A stretch of DNA of 64,000 nt from Mobula hypostoma (taxonomy: Eukaryota). The translations under genes and the position numbers were made by a program. Of this stretch, positions 36,725 through 59,081 are shown one piece after another. The stretch covers positions 52,206,001 through 52,270,000 of the forward strand of contig NC_086097.1 in the NCBI RefSeq assembly GCF_963921235.1, read 5' to 3'. The notes under the pieces were generated by a model, which was not told where the DNA came from, made no database searches, and saw only the letters and a program-made list of their open reading frames with translations. Position 1 is the stretch's first letter, and the number at the start of each line of letters is the position of its first letter.

Positions 36725-37810
36725 CCACACAGAAACAAGCCCCTCAGCCCACCTAAACCATGCCGAACCATTAATCCGCCTCGTTCCATCAGTCTGCTCC
36801 TGAGCTTTAGCCCTCCACACCCTTCCCATCTATGTACCGATTCAAACTCCTCTTAACTGTTCAGTTTGAACCAACATCCACCATTTGCACTGGGAGCTCA
36901 TTCCACACACTCAGCACCCTCTGAGTGAAGAAATTCCTCCTCACGATCCCCTTAAACATTTCACCTTTCACCCTTAACCCCACAGCCTCCCGTTGTAATC
37001 TCACCCAACTGGAGTGGTTGCATTTATCTTATCTATAAGCCTCATAATTTTGTATACCTCTATCAAATTTCCCCTCAATCTTTTATGTTTGAGGGAATTA
37101 AGTCCTAACCTATTCAATCTTTCCCTATAACTCAGGTCCTCAAGTCCCAGCAACATCCTTTTAAATTTTCTCTGCATTCTTTCAATCTTAATTACATCTT
37201 TCCTGTAGGTAGGTGACCGAAACTGCACACAATACTCCAAATTAGGCCTCGCCAATGTCTTCTACAATTTCAACATAATTTCCCAACTCCTGTACTCAAT
37301 ACATTGATTTATGAAGGCCAATGTGCCAAAAGTTTTCTTTACAACCCTATCTACCTGTGGCACCACTTTGGATCTGTATTCGCAGATGTCTCTGTTCTAC
37401 TGCATTCCTCAGTGCCCTACAGCTCACAGCATAAGACCTACCCTGGTTGGTCTGCCCAAAGTGCTACACTTTACACTTATCTACATTACATTCCATCCGC
37501 CATTTTTAGCCCATTTTTTCAACTGGTTCAGATCCCAGCCTTAGCAGACTTTGGAAGTCTTCCTTGCTGTCCACTGCACCCCCAATCTTGGTCATCCACA
37601 ATTTGCTGATCCAGTTTACCACATTACCACCCAGATCATTGATATAGACAACAAGCAACAACAGACCCAGCACCGAACTCTGCAGCGCACTTGCTAGTTA
37701 AGAAAAGCAACCATCTACTACCAGTCTCTGGCTTCTCCCGCGAAGCCAATGCCTAATCCAATTTACCACCGCACATTGAATGCCAGGTGACTGAACCTTC
37801 CTGACCAACC
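36725..37810 (-). mobile_element. CR1 LINE 3' fragment
   Basis: ORF 37001-37255: RPNLEYCVQFRSP...RMLLGLEDLSYRERL. Confidence 0.88.
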
Positions 37811-37829
37811 CCCCCCCCCCCCACGCAAA

Positions 37830-38156
37830 TGTCACAATCTTTGGACAAGCGGACCCAGGGGTGGAGTAAACTCAGGACTCGATAGTAGAAATTAACAATG
37901 AAGAATACTGAGAATTCGGAGAAAAATACTGAGAATAATCCCAAGCTTGCTTACTTGGCATTTGAACACACAGAACTGGTCAAAATCAAAAAACCATCAC
38001 CTGACAATGAGAAGAAAAAAGAAACCATAATCACATAATGATTATTACAAAAAACACGGCAACAGCTTAATGATAAAAGTAGTCACTAAGTAACTCTAAT
38101 AAACTCGAAACCTGCCGTCACCCAGTGTGCCTGGCTGATTGGAAGGGTTCATGACT
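37830..38156 (-). repeat. 3' LTR (327 bp)
   Basis: Minus strand AGTCATG...TGACA; shares tagtagaaattaac and acagcttaatgataaaagtagtca with 47073-47460; polypurine tract immediately upstream. Confidence 0.82.
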
Positions 38157-38160
38157 GGAT

Positions 38161-38174
38161 CCTCCCCCTGCCCC
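38161..38174 (-). promoter_or_regulatory. Polypurine tract (PPT)
   Basis: Minus strand ggggcagggggagg, 4 nt before the 3' LTR. Confidence 0.8.
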
Positions 38175-38283
38175 ACTTATGGCCAGCATCTGATGGCCCA
38201 GATCAGTCAGGATACATGTTATAAAAGTCCATGGTTAAATGAGGATCCAGAATGTCCTAAGAGGAAACCCAACATCTTTTCTC
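38175..38283 (-). pseudogene. Integrase chromodomain C-terminal remnant
   Basis: EKRCWVSS*DILDPHLTMDFYNMYPD*SGPS resembles the sushi-type EERSWVP.RDILDP.LI.DF....P. Confidence 0.75.
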
Positions 38284-39696
38284 TGCAAAAAGTTTCCATT
38301 TTCCTCGCTAACATAATTGATTTTCACCACAAATGTTCTGCTCATTCTTTGAATTAATCCTAACAGGTAGATTAAGGACTAAAGGAACAGCTACATTATC
38401 CAGAATCTTTCTGTACTTCATAGTTGCAAGATCAAAGGAGAATCATAATAAAGTCAAGATAAGATAATGCGGTCTTCCAGTTAATTCCATCACTTCTGCT
38501 TCTTGTAATGAGGTACATTTATTGAAAATAATATCTGCTATCACCAAACAGCATTTCTGGTGAAAGAAAGTAGTTAATGATATCAGAAACCATCTACAAT
38601 TTGCTGAGTCACACACTTCTTCCCCAGAGGCCACTGAAAAATCATTCTGTGGCAAACAACTAATTCTAGATGCTGCATTCTCCCCTTTTGCTGTTCCATG
38701 GGAACCGATTATTTCAAATGGTACCACTCGCACTGAATGCTCCTTATATTTTGTTTGTGTCTGTTTATTTAGAGTCTTGGCCATCATGTGTTGGTGCTCA
38801 TTTTGTGATGCCAAATTACCTGCACTCGTAATCTTCATTGAAACATTAGGACCACCTTTGTAGAACCTTGTTAGGCAGTGGAAAATGCTCGAGCTGTGTC
38901 TGTAAAAGCTTCCTCTTGGAGGGAAACATTGTAACAACAGTAACAGAAGATCCTAGTCCCCAATTTCCCTCCAAACATTCTTTCTATTACTGTTTTCTCT
39001 GGATCTCAACCTTCTGTACAGGCTTCATTGCCTGAATGTCTCAGTCCATGAGATACTCCTTTACTAGGCTTCTCCTCTTCATGTAGCCTGTCCAATAGAT
39101 ATCTTCAATACTCTGACTGGTTCTAATGCAATCTGTGATTAAACCATGGAGGAGATGAAGCTTTCAAGAAGATATATGGAGAGATGGAGAGATGGCTATG
39201 TTCCAGGAAAGCAAATAACCATGGAAGTTTCATCATTCATAATTGCGAATCACTCTCCTTGAGTAGCATAACAGCATTCCTGAAGTCAGAAGTCATGAAA
39301 AGGACCTGAATGACACTCTTCACGTAGCAGGTATCACCAAGATCTGCCAGTCCTGTCTTTCCTGTATCCAATTTTGCAGGATACCTGGATGGCACAAAGA
39401 AAAATGCATTGGAACCTTTGCATGAGGCAATGAGTGTCAGACAGAAGGTTGAGAAAGTTGAGTCTTGAGTACAAAGGTTCCAATACATTTTACGCTGTGA
39501 CATCCAGGCATTCTGATTGAGCAGCTGCTTTGTTTTTCCCTCATTTGGAACGGGAAAATCCTTTAGTGATTATATGACAGGTTCATTTAGGTCAGGGAAG
39601 CCCGAAAACTGCAAGATCATGCAGAGTACCAAAACAGACCATTGTTGTCGACGGCTTATAGCAGAATTGGACTCTTCTTTAGAGAATGACATTATT
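38284..39696 (-). pseudogene. USP35: USP35 processed pseudogene, 3' segment (catalytic domain, truncated before the His box)
   Basis: KEESNSA...FSGFPDLNEPV...QNAWMSQ; KLDTGKTGLADLGDTCYVKSVIQVLFMTSDFR (Cys box); LLDRLHEEEK; CTSLQEAEVMELTGRPHYLILTLL*FSFDLATMKYRKILDNV; no introns; many stops and frameshifts; closer to recalled USP35 than USP38. Confidence 0.85.
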
Positions 39697-42600
39697 TTTA
39701 TAATTTACTTTTATTGAGTTTCATCATGAAACAAACATTTCCATAGGATGCATTTCAGATACTGTACATATATATCATATAATCATATTTGTCATAAATC
39801 TCCACATAGTATTTATCTAAAGTATACTCTTATAGAAAGAAGAGGAAAGAAAGAACAATCGAAAGAAGAAAACTATGTACAGAGTAGGGAGTGATTTTTT
39901 TAACAAGATATTCATTGATTGTGAAAATAAAAGCAGGCCTATGAGATGTTATGTAGTTAAACCATTTTTTCCAGTATGAATAAAATTGTTTCAACTTATG
40001 ATTAACAGATGTCGTTATCTTCTCCATTTTGTAAATGTCCATTGTAATTTCCATCCATACATTTAAAGTTGGGCTCTCCTGAGATAACCATTTCCTGGTA
40101 AGAGTCTTTTTACCAGCCACCAGCAGTACATTCATTAAATATTTATATTTATCTCTTTTCAACCATTCTTGAGGTTTGTACCCAAAATAGAAACATAGAA
40201 AATAGGTGCAGGAGTAGGCCATTCGGCCCTTGGAGCCTGCACCGTCATTCAGTACGATCATGGCTGATCATCCAACTCAGAACCCTGTACCAGCCTTCCC
40301 CCGATACCCCCTGATCCCTTTAGCCACAAGGGCCATATCTAACTCCCTCTTAATTATAGCAAATGAACTCGCCTCAACTGTTTCCTGTGGCAGAGAATTC
40401 CACAGATTCACCACTCTCTGTGTGAAGAAGTTTTTCCTCATCTCGGTCCTAAAAGGCTTCCCCTTTATCATCAAGCTGTGACCCCTCGTTCTGGACTTCC
40501 CTAACATCGGGAACAATCTTCCTGCATCTAGCCTGTCCAATCCCTTTAGGATTTTATATGTTTCAATAAGATCCCCCCTCAATCTTCTAAATTCCAACGA
40601 GTATAAGCCTAGTCGATCCAGTCTTTCATCATATGAAAGTCCTGCCATCCCAGCAATCAATCTGGTGAACCTTCTTTGTACTCCCTCTATGGCAAGGATG
40701 TCTTTCCTCAGATTAGGGGACCAAAACTGCACACAATACTCCAGGTGTGGTCTCACCAAGGCCTTGTACAACTGCAGTAGTACCTCCCTGCTCCTGTACT
40801 CAAATCCTCCTGCTATGAATGCCAGCATACCATTCACCTTTTTCACTGCCTGCTGTACCCGCATGCCCACTTTCAATGACTAGTGTATAATGACACCCAG
40901 GTCTCGTTGCACCTCTCCTTTTCCTAATCGGCCACCATTCAGATAATAATCTGTTTTCCTGTTTTTGCCACCAAACTGGATAACCTCACATTTATCCACA
41001 TTAAATTGCATTTGCCATGAATTTGATCACTCTCCTAACCTATCCAAGTCACCCTGCATCCTCTTAGCATCCTCCTCACAGCTAACACTGCCGCCCAGCT
41101 TCGTGTCATCCGCAAACTTGGAGATGCTGCATTTAATTCCCTCGTCTAAGTCATTAATATATATTGTAAACAACTGGGGTCCCAGCACTGAGCCTTGCGG
41201 TACCCCACTAGTCACTGCCTGCCATTCTGAAAAGGTTCCGTTTACTCCCACTCTTTGCTTCCTTGTCTGCCAACCAATTCTCTATCCACATCAATACCTT
41301 ACCCCCAGTACCGTGTGCTTTAAGTTTGCACACTAATCTCCTGTGTGGGACCTTGTCAAAAGCCTTTTGAAAATCCAAATATACCACATCCACTGGTTCT
41401 CCCCTATCCACTCTACTAATTACATCCTCAAAAAATTCTATGAGATTCGTCAGACATGATTTTCCTTTCACAAATCCATGCTGACTTTATCCGATGATTT
41501 CACCGCTTTCCAAATGTGTTATTATCACATCTTTGATAACTGACTCTAACATTTTCCCCACCACCAATGTCAGGCTAACCGGTCTATAATTCCCCAGTTT
41601 CTCTCTCCCTCCTTTTTTAAAAAGTGGGGTTACATTAGCCACCCTCCAATCCTCAGGAACTAGTCCAAAATCTAAAGAGTTTTGAAAAATTATTCACTAA
41701 TGCATCCACTATTTCTTGGGCTACTTCCTTAAGCACTCTGGGATGCAGACCATCTGGCCCTGGGGATTTATCTGCCTTTAATCCCTTCAATTTACCTAAC
41801 ACCACTTCCCTACTAACATGTATTTCCCTCAGTTCCTCCATCTCACTGGACCCTCTGTCCCCTACTATTTCCGGAAGATTATTTATGTGAAGACAGAACC
41901 AAAGTAGTTATTCAATTGGTCTGCCATGTCCTTGTTCCCCATGATCAATTCACCTGTTTCTGACTGTAAGGGACCTACATTTGTCTTAACCAATCTTTTT
42001 CTTTTCACATATCTATAAAAGCTTTTACAGTCAGTTTTTATATTCCCTGCCAGTTTTCTCTCATAATCTTTTCCCCCCTTCCTAATTAAGCCCTTTGTCC
42101 TCCTCTGCTGGACTCTGAATTTCTCCCAGTCCTCAGGTGAGCCACTTTTTCTGGCTAATTTGTATGCTTCTTCTTTGGAATTGATACGATCCCTAATTTC
42201 CCCTGTCAGCCACGGGTGCACTACCTTCCATGATTTATTCTTTTGTCAAACTGGGATGAACAATTGTTGTAGTTCATCCATGCGATCTTTAAATGCTTGC
42301 CATTGCATATCCACCGTCAATCCTTTAAGTGTCATTTGCCAGTCTATCTTAGCTAATTCACATCTCATACCTTCAAAGTTACCCTTCTTTAAGTTCAAAA
42401 CCTTTGTTTCTGAATTAACTATGTCACTCTCCATCTTAATAAAGAATTCTACCATATTATGGTCACTCTTACCCAAGGGGCCTCTCACGACAAGATTGCT
42501 AATTAACTCTTCCTCATTGCTCAATACCCAGTCTAGAATAGCCTGCTCTCTAGTTGGTTCCTCGACATGTTGGTTCAAAAAACCATCCCGCATACATTCC

Positions 42601-44869
42601 AAGAAATCCTCTTCCTCAGCATCCTTACCAATTTGGTTCACCCAATCTATATGTAGATTGAAGTCACCCATTATAACTGCTGTTCCTTTATTGCACACAT
42701 TTCTAATTTCCTGTTTAATACCATCCCCAACCTCACTACTACTGTTAGGTGGCCTGTACACAACTCCCACCAGCGTTTTCTGCCCCTTAGTGTTATGCAG
42801 CTCTACCCATATCGATTCCACATCCTCCTGGCTAATGTCTTTCCTTTCTATTGTGTTAATCTCCTCTCTAACCAGCAATGCTACCCCACCTCCTTTTCTT
42901 TCATGTCTCTCTCTCCTGAATATTGAATATCCCTGAATGTTGAGCTCCTGTCCCTGGTCACCCTGGAGCCATGTCTCTGTGATCCCAACTATATCATATT
43001 CATTAATAACAATCTGTACTTTTAATTCATCCACCTTGTTACGAATGCTTCTTGCATTGACACACAAAGCCTTCAGGCTTGCTTTTACAACACTCTTAGC
43101 CCTTATACAATTATGTTGAAAAGTGGCCCTTTTTGATTTCTGCCCTGGGTTTGCCGGCCTGCCACTTTTACTTTTCACCTTACTACTTTTTGCTTCTACC
43201 CTCATTTTACACCCCTCTGTCTCTCTGCACTGGTTCCCATTCCCCTGTTGTGAACTAACCTCTTCTCTCCTAGTCTCTTTAATATATGGTCTTATTCTCT
43301 AAATGTATTTATCTGTTAGTATATCATTAAAATTTGCAGAATATAACTTAATTGATCTACTCCCTGAATAAATAAGAATCAAGAAAAGTGAATAATATAA
43401 AAAAAGGTAACAAAGGTGTGATTCCAAGGCTGGGGTCTCTAGATGACCCTGGGTTGGGCTGGAAGAAAAGTCTAGCCATGGGGGATAGCCCCTCCTACCA
43501 GTGGGTTGAGGGCCCCCGCTGCAGTACCTATAAAAGTAAACAAAAAAAAATATGTCCATTACACAGAAATGATTTCCCTGTGTATTCCTCCCATATATAT
43601 ATTCTCATTTAGGTGGGGAAAAAGGATTGAATAAATGATTTTTTAAAAAAATTGAGTAATATAAAATCCACATTATAACACGTATTTCTTGAGATAGGTA
43701 TATCACCGTCTATTTTTGCTTCCGTTTAGTTTATCAGCACTTTTAAAGTTAGCCAAACCTTATGGCTCTTCTGGAGGAGGTGAGGGCTGCCCTCAGAGAA
43801 CTGACAGTCTCTTCCTAAAATCCTTCTCTCATCCTGTTCCTGCCCCCTGCTTTCTAGGTTTCTCTTAGTATTTCCCAAGCAGTTCAGGATAACTGCTCAG
43901 CCAGACTTTCCCTTGGTTTGACCATGCTAATGGACAGCCCTCTGTTCTTCATGTCTGTAGATGCCTCTTCCACCGTCTGATATAGTCGTATCCCTTCTTG
44001 GTAAAATACCCTCAGTTTAGCAGGGTACGGGGTTTGGAATTTAATCTTTTCTTGCTTTAATATTCATTTCGCTTTGGAATATTCCTTCTGTAAGTATATT
44101 AACTTCCCATTCCAAAACACCCTCTTCTTAGCCCAGGCCCTTCGTAGAATCTCCGCCTTGCTCTTGAATCGAAGGAATCTAAGTACAATGGAGCGCTGTT
44201 TATCTTCTCTGTCTCCGGGAGGCCGCTGGACAAGTGAACGGTGCGCCCTTTCAATTTCAACCTCCGTAGTCTGAGGAATCTCCAGCGCTTCCCGCAGCAG
44301 CTTGTCTACAAAGTCCATCATCAACAATCCCTCCGCTCCCTCGGGAACATTATAAATCCTGATATTTTTCCGTCGTGATCTTCTCTCCTGGTCAAACAAT
44401 TTAATCTCCTGTTGATTTAATATTTTTATCGTCTTACTTAGTTTCTGTTCCATGTTTTGCACCCGATCTTCCATCTTCTCAATTCGAGTCTCTGCCACCA
44501 CTATTTTCTGATTGACGTTGGCGAGCTCCGACTTTATATCATTGAGTTGCTGCTTTATATCTTTTTGGACTTCCCTTATCTCTTCCAGAATCTTTATCAT
44601 ATTTGCTGCTTTGCCTGCACTAGGCCCAGTGTCAGCCTCGCCGCCACGAGCACGTGTAGGAGAGCCACTCGTTGTACCTCTCTCTCCCACAGGCTCTGCA
44701 GTGATGCTATTTTTATCTCCATTCTTTCTCCCCATTCTTGCCCCCCTTATCAATTCAGATATTTTTGAAAGGTCTTATATTTGATGGATTAATGGGGCAA
44801 AATATGTGTTTTTCCAGAGGAGCTGCTGATTTAAGCTGCCATTCTGCACGATGATGTCACCGGAACCTC
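39697..44869 (-). mobile_element. L1-clade element with ORF1 and only the C-terminal end of ORF2 (HAL1-like), interrupted by CR1
   Basis: 16-bp TSD AGAGAATGACATTATT (39681-39696 and 44870-44885); ORF1 44064-44753 (RSRRKNIRIYNVPEGAE, EIERAHR); ORF2 tail FGYKPQ...LTRKWLSQESPT...WKKW; AATAAA near 39710. Confidence 0.92.
40190..43280 (-). mobile_element. CR1 LINE (APE and RT, frameshifted) nested in the L1
   Basis: ORF 42246-43205 (NARSIRNK, ITETW, MGDFN, SDH); RT ORFs 40277-41841; AATA at both flanks (40186-40189, 43281-43284); L1 reads LENKTIY-FGYKPQ across the excised insertion. Confidence 0.95.
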
Positions 44870-44885
44870 AGAGAATGACATTATT

Positions 44886-45401
44886 AATTTAGGAATGTGA
44901 CAAACAAGCACATGGAATGCTTCCAATGAATGTTGGAAAGTGAAAAGCTGATATTTCCGCACAGCAAGTGCTCCTGCTCTTACAACTGGGAAAAAGAGCC
45001 TTGAGAACACCTGTTCGGTTTTTGAAAGCGTGACTTCGAGCAAAACACTGAAGTTTTTCACAGCAGCCAAACATTCAGTAAGCCAATAATCCACTTATCT
45101 ATGATATTGGCTAATGGCTAGAAAGCCAATCGATAATATTGGTCAAAGCAGTCAACATCTCTATATCCATGATGCAATCATTATTTGTCATTTTTTGAAT
45201 GACCCCCTCCATGATTTCCATATATTGGACCACAGTGGCCAATGCATTGATGGGCCATCAAATACATCCACATCCTTAAATGGCTATGCACTGTTCACCA
45301 TCGAGAGGTTCTTTTGCTGCTTCTGAAATACGTCTTACAGGAACATGCTTGACAGAAGTTGGATGGCAAGACAACATCATAGCTTCCAAAATCTTGTCCA
45401 T
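44886..45401 (-). pseudogene. USP35: USP35 processed pseudogene, 5' segment
   Basis: ATG at 45401-45399: MDKILEAMMLSCHPTSVKHVPVRRISEAAKEPLDGEQC; then ALATVVQY...MLTALTNIIDW and CLAAVKNFSVLLEVTLSKTEQVFSRL...TFQHSLEAFH. Confidence 0.88.
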
Positions 45402-47055
45402 TTTTTTCTCCATAGGTTGTCTCTGAGGAGCAGACAAGCCAGAGAGCCTTCCCCAGGGAGGACACGTACCAGGTAGTAAATTGATGGTGCATTCATAGTC
45501 CTTGTATGGCGGGAACATAGTGGTTCTCCTTTGCTAAACACCTCCAACAAATCTGGGTACTCCAACGGCACTCTAGACAACTTAATGGTTCAAAGGTTCC
45601 ACTTAATATCAGAGAATGTATACAACCTGAAGTTCTTACTCTTCGCAGGCATCCATGAAACAGAAGAAAAGCCCCAAAGAATGAATGACAGAAAAACATT
45701 AGAACCCCAAAGCCCCACTCCCATGCACAAGCAGAGCCAAAGCATCAACCCTCTCCCTCCCATTCTCCATTTATTCCAGCAGAAAGCATCAGCTCCTCAC
45801 CATCTGGCATGCAAGCAACAGATCTAGAGTCCATCAAAACCACTGTTCATCCCAACAGTTCAACATCCCACCTGCTCTTTCTCTGTCACTAATGAGGGAT
45901 ATAGAGGTGCCAACAGACCAGTTAATCCAAGGAATGTCTAGAGAATGAATAAATTGGAAATTAACCTTGTGAATTTGGAATCTCTATACCAGTCTGATGT
46001 CCAAAAACTCCCCGCTGAACCAGAGTCTACCAAAGCTCTCTTAGATTGTTGATGTCTCCCCCAAGGTAATCGGGATGGTAAAACCACTCTGGGACTCCAT
46101 GAAACAGGAGAGGGACTTGAGACTGTTACAGTTCTCCCCTCATTAAACAGTCCTGGGAGATTTTCCTGACAACTCGGGTCAGGTGACTCGGAAGTGGTCA
46201 GCCTTACCACTGTATAAGCAACACCTCAGCCTCATGCATCACTCTCACTCAGCTGGGGAGACATCAGTACTTCCAAGTTGCATGGGTTCTTCCAGCAATG
46301 ATTGTGGTGATCTGCAGTGGTTATCAGATTGAGGACCTGAGGTAGACATTGGGTAGTTCTGAGAACCAGTCTCCAGATGAACTCACTACACTTCTCCATC
46401 CTTCTTTCAGAAATATGGTTGTCGATTCTTATGGCCTTCTCCATAAGTTCCTCCAAATCCCCTACCTGTTCTCTGGTCGCAAGAATGTTTTTAAGCTAGT
46501 CAATTAATCTCCACCTAAACTGAGCAACCAAAGCCTCATTGTTCCATCTGCTCTTGGCCACTGGGGTACGGAAATCAATGGTACTGATTTGGCCACAGAT
46601 TGTGTCCCTGATGCAGCTGGAGGAATCTGCTGGCTGCCTCTGAGCCCTCGGAAGATGAAAGAACACCTTCCTCGTCATTTTTAGAAATAAATTTATGTCA
46701 GAACACATGGGAGTATCCTTCACCCATTAAGTCGTTGCCCATGAAAAGGCCCTGCCCAAGATAGGGAAATTATAAAGGCCACCTTATTCCTGCCCAAGGG
46801 GAATTTTGTGGGCTGCAATTCAAGGACTAGGGAGCATTGATTTAAGAACCCACAGCAAGACTCAAGGGTCCCCATAGTACTGCTCTGGGGGTGGCAGGTA
46901 GTTCTGGGGACGTGTAGCAGGGCACACAAGTGTACGCTTGAAACCGGAGTCCTTCTGTAATGGAAGTATCTAATAGAGGAACTGCTCATGGTTCCAGCCG
47001 CCTGCCTTTGGCAGGCCAATGTCATGCAAAGTTGATCAATCACAGCTGGGTCCAT
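45402..47055 (-). pseudogene. Sushi-type gag, protease and RT N-terminus (degenerate), with a ~330-bp SINE-like insert at ~45586-45915
   Basis: ORFs 46720-47145, 46496-46723, 46232-46456, 45938-46210, 45377-45580, 45276-45518; gag ATG (MDPA) at 47055; CLYSGKADHFRVT* zinc knuckle ~46180-46220. Confidence 0.88.
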
Positions 47056-47072
47056 GACTGGCTGAATCCTGC

Positions 47073-47460
47073 TGTCATAATCTTCAGACAAGTGGCCCCA
47101 GATGCGGAATAAACTCTGGGCTCCATAGTAGAAATTAACGATCAAGATTTATTCAGGGAACAATACGGGGAGTAATCAAACTAAGACCTTACTTATTTGG
47201 GGCTTGAGCACACAGAAATTCAGGACTCAGTGATGAGCACTGGTCCAGAATAATCTTAAATAGAACATAAAACACCGGAAATCTGTGCAGAACAATATCA
47301 AAAACTAATCATTTAAGAACATGAAGCATAAGGAAACCATATTCACATAACGAGTGTCATGAAAAACACTGTGACAGCTTAATGATAAAAGTAGTCATTG
47401 AACAACTCTAATGAACTCATGTAAATGGTGTTCAGGGTCACTGAGACCTGCAGCTACCTC
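47073..47460 (-). repeat. 5' LTR (outer end uncertain)
   Basis: Inner end TGACA at 47073, 17 nt before the gag ATG; similar to 37830-38156 with indels; minus-strand ctatttaag and aataaa present. Confidence 0.78.
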
Positions 47461-49174
47461 ACACTCAAAGATGACAAACAGGAGTGCTCCCTGCGGTACA
47501 CCACTAGTCACAGGCTTCCAGTCAGAGAGGCAACCATCTACCACCACTCTCTTGCATCTCCCATAAAACCAATGTCTAATCTAATTTAAAGGATTGTACT
47601 TATACATCCAGTCCCTTAGAATAACTTACCCACCACTGATGTCCAGCTCACCAGCCTATAATTCCCTGGATGATTCTTAGAGGCTCTCTTAAACAATGGA
47701 ACAACATTGGCGATCCTCCAATCCTCTGGTACCTCTCCCATGGCGAAGGATGTTTTAAATATTTCTACTTGAGCCCCTTGAGCTAGTATTTCTATACCAG
47801 CTTCCCACAGAGCCCAAGGGAAATCTTCTCACATCCCGGGGGTTCATCCACCTTAATTTGCCTCAAGACAGCAAACACGTCCTCCTCTGTAATCTGTATA
47901 GGGTCCATGGCCTTGCTGCTGCTTTGCCTCCCTTCTATAGACTCAGTCCTTCTCCGGAGAAAGTACAGATTTAAAACCTTCCCCACCTCTTTCAGCTCCG
48001 TGCATAGATTACCACTCTGACATTCCAGAGAACTAATTTTGTCCCTTGCTATCCTTTTGCTCTTAATATATATGAAGGTTCTTAGGACTCTCCTTACCTT
48101 GTCTGCTAGAGGAACCTCATTCCTTCTTTTAGCCCTGCGGATTTTATTCTTAAGTGTTCTTTTGCATTTTTTATACTCCTCAAGTACCTCATTTCTTCCT
48201 ACCTGCCTATAAACTTATGTCCGAACACATGGGAGTGTTCCCATGTGTCTCCTTCTTTTCTTAACCAAGGCCTCAATATCTCTCAAAAACCATGGTTCTC
48301 TAAACCTGTTATCCTTGACTTTAATTTTGACAGGAACACGCAGTCTCCGTACTCTCAAAATTTCACTTTTGAAGGCCTCCCATTTACTAAGTACACCTTT
48401 ACAAGAAAACAACCTGACCCAATCCACACTTGCCAAATCCTTTCTGACGCCATCAAAATTGGCCTACCCCAATTTAAAATTTCAACCCAAGGATCAAATC
48501 TATCCTTTTCCATAATTACCTTGAAACTAATGACATTATGACAACTTCTGTCACCTGCGGTCTCATTCCCTAATAGGAGATCTAATATTGAACTCCTTGT
48601 ACTTGGGAATCTATGTACCGATTAAGGAAACTTTCCTGTACATATTTGACAAACTCAATCCTATCCAGCACTTTTCCAACATGGGAATCCCAGTCAATAT
48701 GTGGAAAGTTAAAATTGCCTATTATCGCAGTCTTATGGTTCTCGCAATAGTCTGGGATCTCTACAAATTTTCTTTTATAAATCCCATGGACCGTTGTTTA
48801 GTCTATAATATAATCCCATTAACGTGGTCATATCTTTCTTATTCCTCTTTCTGCCCATAAAGCCTCACTAGATGAGCCCTCTGGTCTGTGCTGCCTGCGC
48901 ACTGCCGTGACATTTCCCCTGACTAGTAATGCTACCCCACCCCTCCCCACACTCTACCAGGTCCAAAACAATGGAACCCTGGAACATTGAGCTGCTAGTC
49001 CTTCTCACTAATGGCTACAACATCATAGTTCTATGTGTTGATCCATGCCCCAAGCTCATCCGCCTTTCTAACGATACTCCTTGCATTGAAATTTATGCAG
49101 CTCAGAACATTAGTCCAACCTTGCTCAATCTTTTGATTCCTAACCTTGTATGTAAGCTTACCAATTTTTTTCTC

Positions 49175-58590: not shown

Positions 58591-59081
58591 AGGTCTTCCG
58601 ACATTGCGATGGAATATGGAGAGCCTGTAGCATGTCGAATTATTGGGTGAACAAGGTAGTCTTTGGGGTAACTGCAAGTCTGTGTCTTTGCTATTGCTTG
58701 GCTCACACTTGAGAGCTGGTAGCAGGTGCGCATTATTTTTACCAGTGGGGGGAGGGGGATTGTTCCTTGCTGCCGCTTATGTGAGGGAGGGAGGGGTGCT
58801 GGTGGGGGACTTTAGGGTTCTAACATTTAATTGTCATTCATTCTTGGGGCACTTCTCTGTTTTCATGGATGGTTGCTAAGAAAAAGCATTTCAGGATGTA
58901 TATTGTATACATTTCTCTGACATTAAATTGTACCTTTGAAATGTTTGAAATTATTATTTTCCATATTATTTCAGGTCAGATAGGATCTATGTAGAAAGAA
59001 ACAAAGTTAACTTTTGTGTTAATGACCAACCGTCAAAAATAGGAATAGTTTATCAGATCTGTAAGCAGTTCTCAACATCTT

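Follow-up and report, generated by a model that had tools for sequence, protein, structure and literature searches.

Results

The window analyzed here is a stretch of 64,000 nucleotides from the genome of the ray Mobula hypostoma (C1:52206001-52270000; C1, C9, C21, and so on label contigs of the 3.48-Gb genome that was searched, and L-numbers label extracted loci). Read on the minus strand, on which all parts of the element described below lie, positions 47476 to 37830 of the window hold a decayed long terminal repeat (LTR) retrotransposon in which a large part of pol is replaced by a copy of a USP35-like messenger RNA (mRNA). We consider it highly probable that a chromodomain-bearing Ty3/gypsy element took up a spliced USP35-like mRNA during reverse transcription and then multiplied. 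An initial annotation, made from the letters of the window alone, had proposed an element of this kind, reading LTR, gag with zinc knuckle, protease, the first reverse transcriptase (RT) residues, intronless USP35, a chromodomain tail, polypurine tract, and LTR, and this order of parts is borne out by the alignments and domain searches that follow.

The cargo lies in two blocks. The first (44886..45401) begins with residues 1-41 and a private 51-nt deletion and, beyond the cryptic-donor splice, takes in exons 2-4 and enters exon 5. The second (38286..39696) continues from exon 5 through exon 8 and 800 nt into exon 9, and it includes the Cys box and not the His box. Pfam recognizes Usp38-like_N (4.8e-24) and UCH (2.6e-05; 24.4 bits against a cut-off of 23.9) in the cargo, and in a tblastn search, residues 1-41 and 233-811 of a USP35-like protein of 994 residues align with 45401-44843 and 39695-38263. 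Both database matches carry the name USP35-like. The parent gene is at C21:128880192-128920353, with two exons in the 5′ untranslated region (UTR) and ten coding exons, the introns that could be placed being 1.7–9 kb long. Its exons are 83–91% identical to the window copy at the DNA level and match a Hypanus sabinus USP35-like protein at 93–97%, except for one match of 64% that extends beyond exon 6. A second genomic locus, on C9, is a 40–54% identical paralogue and presumably represents USP38. Most exon-sized pieces of the C21 gene and of the C9 paralogue are free of stops; the two stop-carrying C21 matches are one that spans exons 5-6 with the intron and one that is the last exon. The copies are nearest to the C21 gene, and by sequence similarity the cargo derives from USP35 rather than from its paralogue USP38.

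Eight coding splice junctions of the parent are joined in the window copy. In three other copies, L026 (C45), L028 (C40), and L035 (C73), the two 5′UTR introns of 4.4 and 1.6 kb have been removed as well, and the ~190 bases before the ATG correspond to the parent's two upstream 5′UTR exons plus the 15 bases preceding the ATG. Because the splice junctions of an intron-containing parent are joined, the cargo represents a spliced mRNA and not genomic USP35 with its introns, as the initial annotation had maintained for 45401 to ~38284. One further join is common to the window copy, L022, L026, L028, L029, and L035: it leads from G|GTAAGG in exon 1 to the normal exon-2 acceptor and removes exactly 501 nt, in frame (residues 62-228). 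We read this join as the probable product of alternative or cryptic splicing in the transcript that was captured. A G|GTAAGG donor is present in exon 1 of the parent on C21 (L039:958/957), 501 bases upstream of the normal donor, and the living parent gene may make an in-frame isoform without residues 62-228. The Pristis 'isoform X2' was considered as this 501-nt splice form and ruled out, as it begins at residue 249.

At its 3′ end, the cargo stops at about residue 806-811, within the large exon 9 and upstream of the His box, and leads straight into chromodomain sequence. No poly(A) tract or target duplication is found around the cargo, which has the same orientation as the element, in agreement with the initial reading. 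It therefore has neither the poly(A), the 7–20 bp duplication, and the mRNA 3′ end by which a processed pseudogene is known, nor the combination of Cys box, His box, and open frame that marks an active deubiquitinase, since the His box is absent and stops are present.

The points at which the element gives way to the cargo could be mapped against the parent and against L040, a pol-bearing relative, so that the two breakpoints sought by the initial annotation now have positions, L040:2914 on the 5′ side and L040:5398 on the 3′ side. At the 5′ junction, the gypsy match ends at L040:2914, after ~35 codons of the RT region; the parent 5′UTR starts within a few bases, and element and mRNA resemble each other here over AGGA(A/T)T, with four bases exact and five of six overall. 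At the 3′ junction, the match to the parent passes into a match to the chromodomain (from L040:5398) within 38286-38279, and the similarity is TGGAG(G/A)A, with five bases exact and six of seven overall. What remains of pol behind the cargo is the C-terminal half of its chromodomain (…KRCWVSS*DILDPHLTMDFYNMYPD; 38200..38285), ~85 bases that align with L040:5398-5470. The missing part of pol corresponds to L040:2915-5397 (~2.5 kb), which holds RVT_1 (34.5 bits in L040) and the integrase SH3 domain (SH3_Tf2-1, 60.4 bits), and it is in this gap that the RT core, RNase H, and integrase core, already noted as absent, would have been. In the window copy itself, gypsy sequence continues to 45405 and the USP35 ATG follows six bases on, in frame. 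Because five other copies keep the 5′UTR, this in-frame junction of pol and ATG is a private deletion of ~210 bp and not the point of capture.

Both sides flanking the cargo are colinear with the same pol-bearing relative L040, and also with L041, and the parts toward either LTR come from a single family rather than from two unrelated ones. Pfam Chromo scores 30.1 bits in L041, above the cut-off, and 22 bits in L040, below it. Assignment of the element to the chromodomain-bearing Ty3/gypsy group is thus supported by domain and alignment evidence, and this much of the 'Sushi-type' label in the initial annotation stands. For the narrower placement in the Sushi-ichi lineage, the source of the PEG10/RTL genes, which may apply, there is a single hint, a DUF4939 match of 21.5 bits, below the cut-off of 29, in the gag frame of the relative L003; DUF4939 is a family linked to PEG10/RTL. 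Five of five further RT-start matches that were examined run past the breakpoint into pol, and all pol-bearing relatives seen are decayed. Among the seven elements of this gypsy family that were inspected, none carries a second cargo. L041 (C55:31630000-31635999) is a cargo-free member of the family in which L040:2992-4986 is deleted, with both LTRs and the best-kept chromodomain; its deletion breakpoints are independent of those of the USP35 chimera.

The chimera recurs in the genome in at least 19 copies, and what the initial annotation had offered as a possibility, a once mobile chimeric family, is realized. Ten copies, which have their junctions in common, are dispersed and at least nine are clustered on C73; both counts are lower bounds from searches in which pieces of the window copy and the USP35-like protein served as queries. 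The dispersed sites are C1:52.2M (the window), C1:61.4M, C9:55.2M, C9:78.0M, C22:161.1M, C36:42.0M, C36:98.3M, C40:64.5M, C45:41.3M, and C59:65.7M. They were examined in 10-kb stretches, and LTRs were scored within each stretch: at least one LTR is present in nine of the ten and both are present in four. The 3′ junction is unbroken in eight of the ten, and the 5′ junction with the 5′UTR is found in five copies; L022 (C36:98.3M) retains the two LTRs and every one of the three junctions. No A-rich or pol remnants lie between cargo and chromodomain in the eight copies that span this junction. Beyond the LTRs, the dispersed loci match the window solely in LINE (long interspersed nuclear element) pieces, which are not colinear. 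Candidate 5-bp target duplications are TAGAC/TAGGC in L026 (4/5), CCACA/CCATG in L027 (3/5), and GAGAA/ATGAA in L022 (3/5).

In a maximum-likelihood tree of the cargo (16 copies and the parent, 1593 columns), the dispersed copies radiate as a star without resolved internal order, their terminal branches being 0.09–0.12 long, and the parent sits on a short branch. Kimura two-parameter (K2P) distances between paired LTRs are 0.23–0.24 in L022 and L027, twice the terminal branch length, which is as expected if insertion and burst coincide. The value for the window pair is 0.39, from a poor alignment of the blurred start of the 5′ LTR. The chimera spread in one burst to at least ten dispersed sites. 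The C73 cluster has a different appearance. Within 640 kb (C73:8.47-9.11 Mb) it contains at least nine large copies and four fragments, and the six copies extracted (L030-L035) have no LTR, do not reach the 3′ junction, and all end near window 38530. The C73 copies form a weak clade (85/81), within which four make up a 100/100 group with short branches. From this shared truncation and grouping, the cluster looks like a later segmental (DNA-level) duplication of one truncated copy.

Constraint on the cargo was gauged by counting changes per codon position; exon 7, one of the nine exon pieces, is slightly out of register at its start. Private changes seen in single copies are distributed 160:158:171 over positions 1, 2, and 3. 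They are neutral, and the cargo drifted freely after insertion. None of the retrocopy matches longer than ~130 residues is free of stops.

The two LTRs lie where the initial annotation had put them. They are direct repeats, 37830-37904 matching 47073-47147 at 81% and 37981-38106 matching 47293-47418 at 77%, and their borders were set by aligning them together with 11 further LTR ends from members of the family (13 ends in all), the termini in relatives being TGTCATG...TTACA. Both 3′ ends ('...TTACA') are thereby fixed, at 47073 and 37830. The 5′ LTR (47073..47476) has an exact 3′ end and a blurred 5′ start at 47463-47476. The 3′ LTR (37830..38156), defined by the direct repeat and the LTR-end alignment, starts at 38156, just behind the polypurine tract (38157..38178), a G-rich run found directly upstream of the LTR start in six of the seven aligned 3′ LTRs. 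A run of 13 G lies behind the 3′ LTR, at ~37822-37810.

Downstream of the 5′ LTR, the gag remnant (46180..47054) extends from an ATG at 47054 (MDPAV...) to a decayed remnant of the zinc knuckle; it contains several stops and has 70–75% DNA identity to gag in nine other copies and in L040 and L041. The protease remnant (45900..46180) reads LVDSGSAG, with D-S-G at ~46027-46019, and was delimited from the translated frame 45938-46225 and from DNA matches. These motifs are readable in translation as the initial annotation had read them, and Pfam returns no family for the window's own gag, protease, and RT-start frames. The last gypsy sequence before the cargo consists of the first codons of the RT region (…DYECTINLLPG…LSAPQRQPME; 45405..45582), 178 bases that are colinear with L040:2748-2914, the RVT_1 domain lying in the next L040 frame. 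This segment has genome matches at 70–81%, with 21 of 36 covering most of it and six more covering a piece, and it corresponds to the RT start of pol-bearing relatives.

Several private changes mark the window copy. The gypsy match of other copies ends near 45900 and picks up again at 45582, and this gap between protease and RT start holds an insertion of an interspersed repeat (45589..45878), 64% alike over 325 bases to window 58620-58940. An insertion had been annotated here at ~45586-45915; it is upheld in part, as the repeat covers 45878-45589. The repeat is ~290 bp long at these two places, and its copy in the element displaced ~170-200 bases of it. Within the cargo, a private 81-bp insertion (39460-39380) terminates in a pyrimidine run plus AG. 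The largest change is the nested LINE insertion or insertions (39697..44869), 5.2 kb long and flanked by a 16-base target duplication (44885-44870 and 39696-39681), which divides the USP35 part in two, as the initial annotation had recognized for a later L1. Pfam finds Exo_endo_phos and RVT_1 inside it, and other copies read uninterrupted across the site. The insertion looks composite, with an L1-like ORF1 frame at 44774-44064 (where Transposase_22 reaches no better than E 0.0045), an endonuclease and RT of CR1/L2-like type at 43298-40277, and then a frame at 40267-39830 that by eye resembles the tail of L1 ORF2; a second LINE may lie inside the nested one. With stops in both gag and cargo, the window copy is dead, and its inactivation had been correctly called.

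Public contigs of four organisms, A to D, were aligned to window 37600-39900. The contigs of organism A show no differences from the window copy, and A is probably the source species. Organism B contributes a 675-base contig over 37781-38467, with 14 differences and 12 gap letters, that spans the border between flank and LTR, the entire 3′ LTR, and the cargo junction, and a 387-base contig over 39142-39528 with four differences that contains the private 81-bp insertion. From organism C there are three short contigs over 38244-38606 with 0–2 differences, and from organism D contigs over 37712-37903 (12 differences) and 38072-38652 (43 differences). The border between 3′ LTR and flank is thereby covered in B and D, and the junction between cargo and chromodomain in B, C, and D. 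Divergence from the window copy is ~1–3% in B, 0–1% in C, and 6–7% in D. Because paralogous copies differ by 20–25%, the contigs of B, C, and D represent the same insertion, which is therefore older than the split of these organisms. Contigs without the 81-bp insertion most likely come from the parent gene or from paralogous copies. One contig of organism D ceases to match at 39696; the part of the window used for the alignment ends short of the far side of the nested LINE.

Discussion

The organization of the chimera, LTR-gag-protease-[USP35 5′UTR to codon ~808]-half chromodomain-polypurine tract-LTR, suggests a sequence of events in which the replacement of pol and the uptake of the cargo would be one and the same step. 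A USP35 mRNA would have been co-packaged with the RNA of the element, and minus-strand synthesis would have copied the 3′ end of the element RNA up to the middle of the chromodomain. There, at the 5-nt match TGGAG, synthesis would have switched onto the USP35 mRNA inside exon 9, copied it back across all splice junctions into the first 5′UTR exon, and, at the 4-nt match AGGA, switched a second time onto element RNA ~35 codons into the RT region. The resulting chimera kept its LTRs, the region in which the primer site is expected, the polypurine tract, and gag, and because it kept them we propose that it was copied in trans by pol-bearing relatives. One copy on C73 would have multiplied later at the DNA level, and the window copy later acquired its ~210-bp deletion in the 5′UTR, the 51-nt deletion, the 81-bp insertion, the repeat, and the 5.2-kb LINE. 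Because the His box is absent and no constraint is seen after insertion, the cargo was probably a passenger.

A number of observations weigh against this proposal. Template switching and mobilization in trans are inferred from the anatomy of the copies. The microsimilarities at the two junctions are short and were taken from decayed copies. About ten bases behind the 5′ junction there are three differences between all chimeras and the present-day parent, and the exact 5′ switch point is uncertain because of them. No primer-binding site was identified, and the three candidate target duplications of other copies are identical at just 3-4 of 5 bases. The flanks of the window copy show no clean 5-bp target duplication; instead, 47588-47524 and 37765-37701 are overlapping pieces of a CR1/L2-like LINE RT that are 82% alike over 65 bases. 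Such overlapping flanks are at odds with ordinary integration, and we cannot explain them. They may be a very long target duplication from aberrant integration, or they may be two LINE copies. The two flanking pieces share the orientation of the element, their frames overlap by ~37 residues, and their likeness about equals that between the two LTRs. Finally, the 33 changes common to at least 80% of the copies are distributed 9:4:20 by codon position and are thus rich in third positions. Most simply, this skew arose on the parent's own constrained branch, and it could also reflect a short spell of constraint on the cargo.

Three other explanations were weighed. The first is that LINEs made an ordinary processed pseudogene of USP35 within a resident gypsy element, that deletions then trimmed the poly(A), the 3′ end, and 2.5 kb of pol, and that the product was copied thereafter. 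LINEs with endonuclease and RT are abundant in this genome and did insert into the window element, and the copies are old enough for secondary deletions (LTR K2P 0.23–0.39), of which the window copy shows three such changes. Processed pseudogenes made by LINEs carry poly(A) and 7–20 bp target duplications and are usually truncated at the 5′ end. The USP35 cargo resembles them only in its intronless mRNA origin: it is truncated at the 3′ end instead, and retention of the 5′UTR with loss of the 3′ end is the reverse of the usual LINE product. Neither poly(A) nor a duplication flanks the cargo, both of its borders fall at short matches to the element, and its orientation is that of the element. 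A LINE origin would require an insertion and two deletions, all before amplification, as against two template switches in one step, and we regard it as quite unlikely.

Under the second explanation, a single chimeric locus was duplicated at the DNA level (segmentally), and retrotransposition played no part in producing the copies. The C73 copies fit it well, given their cluster of 640 kb, the absence of LTRs in all six that were extracted, and the short-branched 100/100 clade of four; it fares worse with the ten scattered copies, nine of which have LTRs at the expected distance. Segmental duplication is also at variance with the loci outside the LTRs, where the dispersed copies share only non-colinear LINE matches with the window, with the star shape of the tree and distances between paired LTRs that are about double the terminal branches, both of which fit separate insertions, and with candidate 5-bp duplications that vary by site. 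As an account of the family, it is more improbable still than a LINE origin. Least probable of all is retention of the USP35 piece for the use of element or host, for example as a catalytically dead decoy in the ubiquitin pathway. In its favor, the chimera is more numerous than L041, the deletion derivative without cargo (of which a single copy was seen), the captured splice form stays in frame and includes the N-terminal domain as well as the Cys box, and the widely shared changes are skewed toward third positions. Opposed to it are private changes that are flat over the codon positions, stops throughout every copy, the missing His box, ~190 nt of 5′UTR that separate the pol frame from the cargo ATG in the fuller copies, and a 9:4:20 skew that is the expectation from the parent's constrained branch.

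Capture of a passenger mRNA by a gypsy element, the explanation that we prefer, has well-known parallels, and the USP35 chimera adds no new mechanism. In acutely transforming retroviruses, recombination in the course of reverse transcription has put spliced host oncogene sequence in the place of pol or env, and propagation depends on a helper; the classical model of their origin begins with transcription that reads through from a provirus into the gene downstream. The chimera differs from them: it has neither env nor an infectious stage, and nothing points to selection for the cargo. Plant LTR retrotransposons such as Bs1 of maize carry fragments of host genes that are amplified along with the element, a form of carriage similar to that described here in a different lineage and in different element families. 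For animals, LTR-mediated retroposition has already been published (Tan et al. 2016, Genome Res 26:1663, PMC5131818), and in the parts of that study that we draw on, the retrocopies are intronless pieces of host mRNA with discontinuous flanks from one LTR element; short microsimilarities mark both switch points, the cargo is truncated at the 3′ end and has neither poly(A) nor a target duplication of its own, and there are signs of renewed retroposition as non-autonomous elements. The USP35 chimera shares every one of these features. It differs from that set, as far as the same passages describe it, in being old (LTR pairs 20–30% apart), in having at least 19 copies, in being common to related species, and in its host, a cartilaginous fish, a group outside those covered there. 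In a literature search of published texts, we found nothing in print on USP35 within a retrotransposon; for LTR-carried retrocopies in cartilaginous fishes we likewise found nothing in print within the same scope, as judged in part from passages of the texts concerned.

The history of SUDS3 in this genome may bear on the same question. A search of the whole genome with Pfam Sds3 (PF08598) gave at least 32 contiguous matches above the cut-off on many contigs, from 331 first-look candidates, and stops are present in 22 of the 32 listed matches; SUDS3 retrocopies are very numerous in the genome. A 2026 preprint on 244 vertebrate genomes ranks SUDS3, in the passages available to us, with the leading sources of retrocopies in cartilaginous fishes and links the abundance of retrocopies to non-LTR elements, and those passages make no mention of LTR carriage. 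Carriage by LTR elements may explain part of the SUDS3 retrocopy signal. By blastn, SUDS3 and RBM25 loci of this genome match the USP35 chimera family in LINE pieces only and have neither LTR nor gag DNA in common with it; if they too are captures, they would be separate ones made by other families. More broadly, and tentatively, with the chances in our judgment slightly against it, there could have been a time in the ray lineage when several different gypsy families took up a host mRNA apiece and amplified it as a non-autonomous 'pack-LTR' family. If this is true, a substantial proportion of the 'retrocopies' that reach high numbers in cartilaginous fishes would have traveled with LTR elements instead of being made repeatedly by LINEs from genes expressed in the germline.

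The USP35 chimera represents an old and fully resolved case of LTR-mediated gene capture in a cartilaginous fish, in which the breakpoints are mapped, the spliced 5′UTR is kept, and a splice form is frozen, and it comes with clear evidence that the chimera itself multiplied. Families of this kind inflate retrocopy counts and yield mis-annotated 'USP35-like' fragments, and they can mislead studies that equate the abundance of retrocopies with repeated LINE-driven retroposition.

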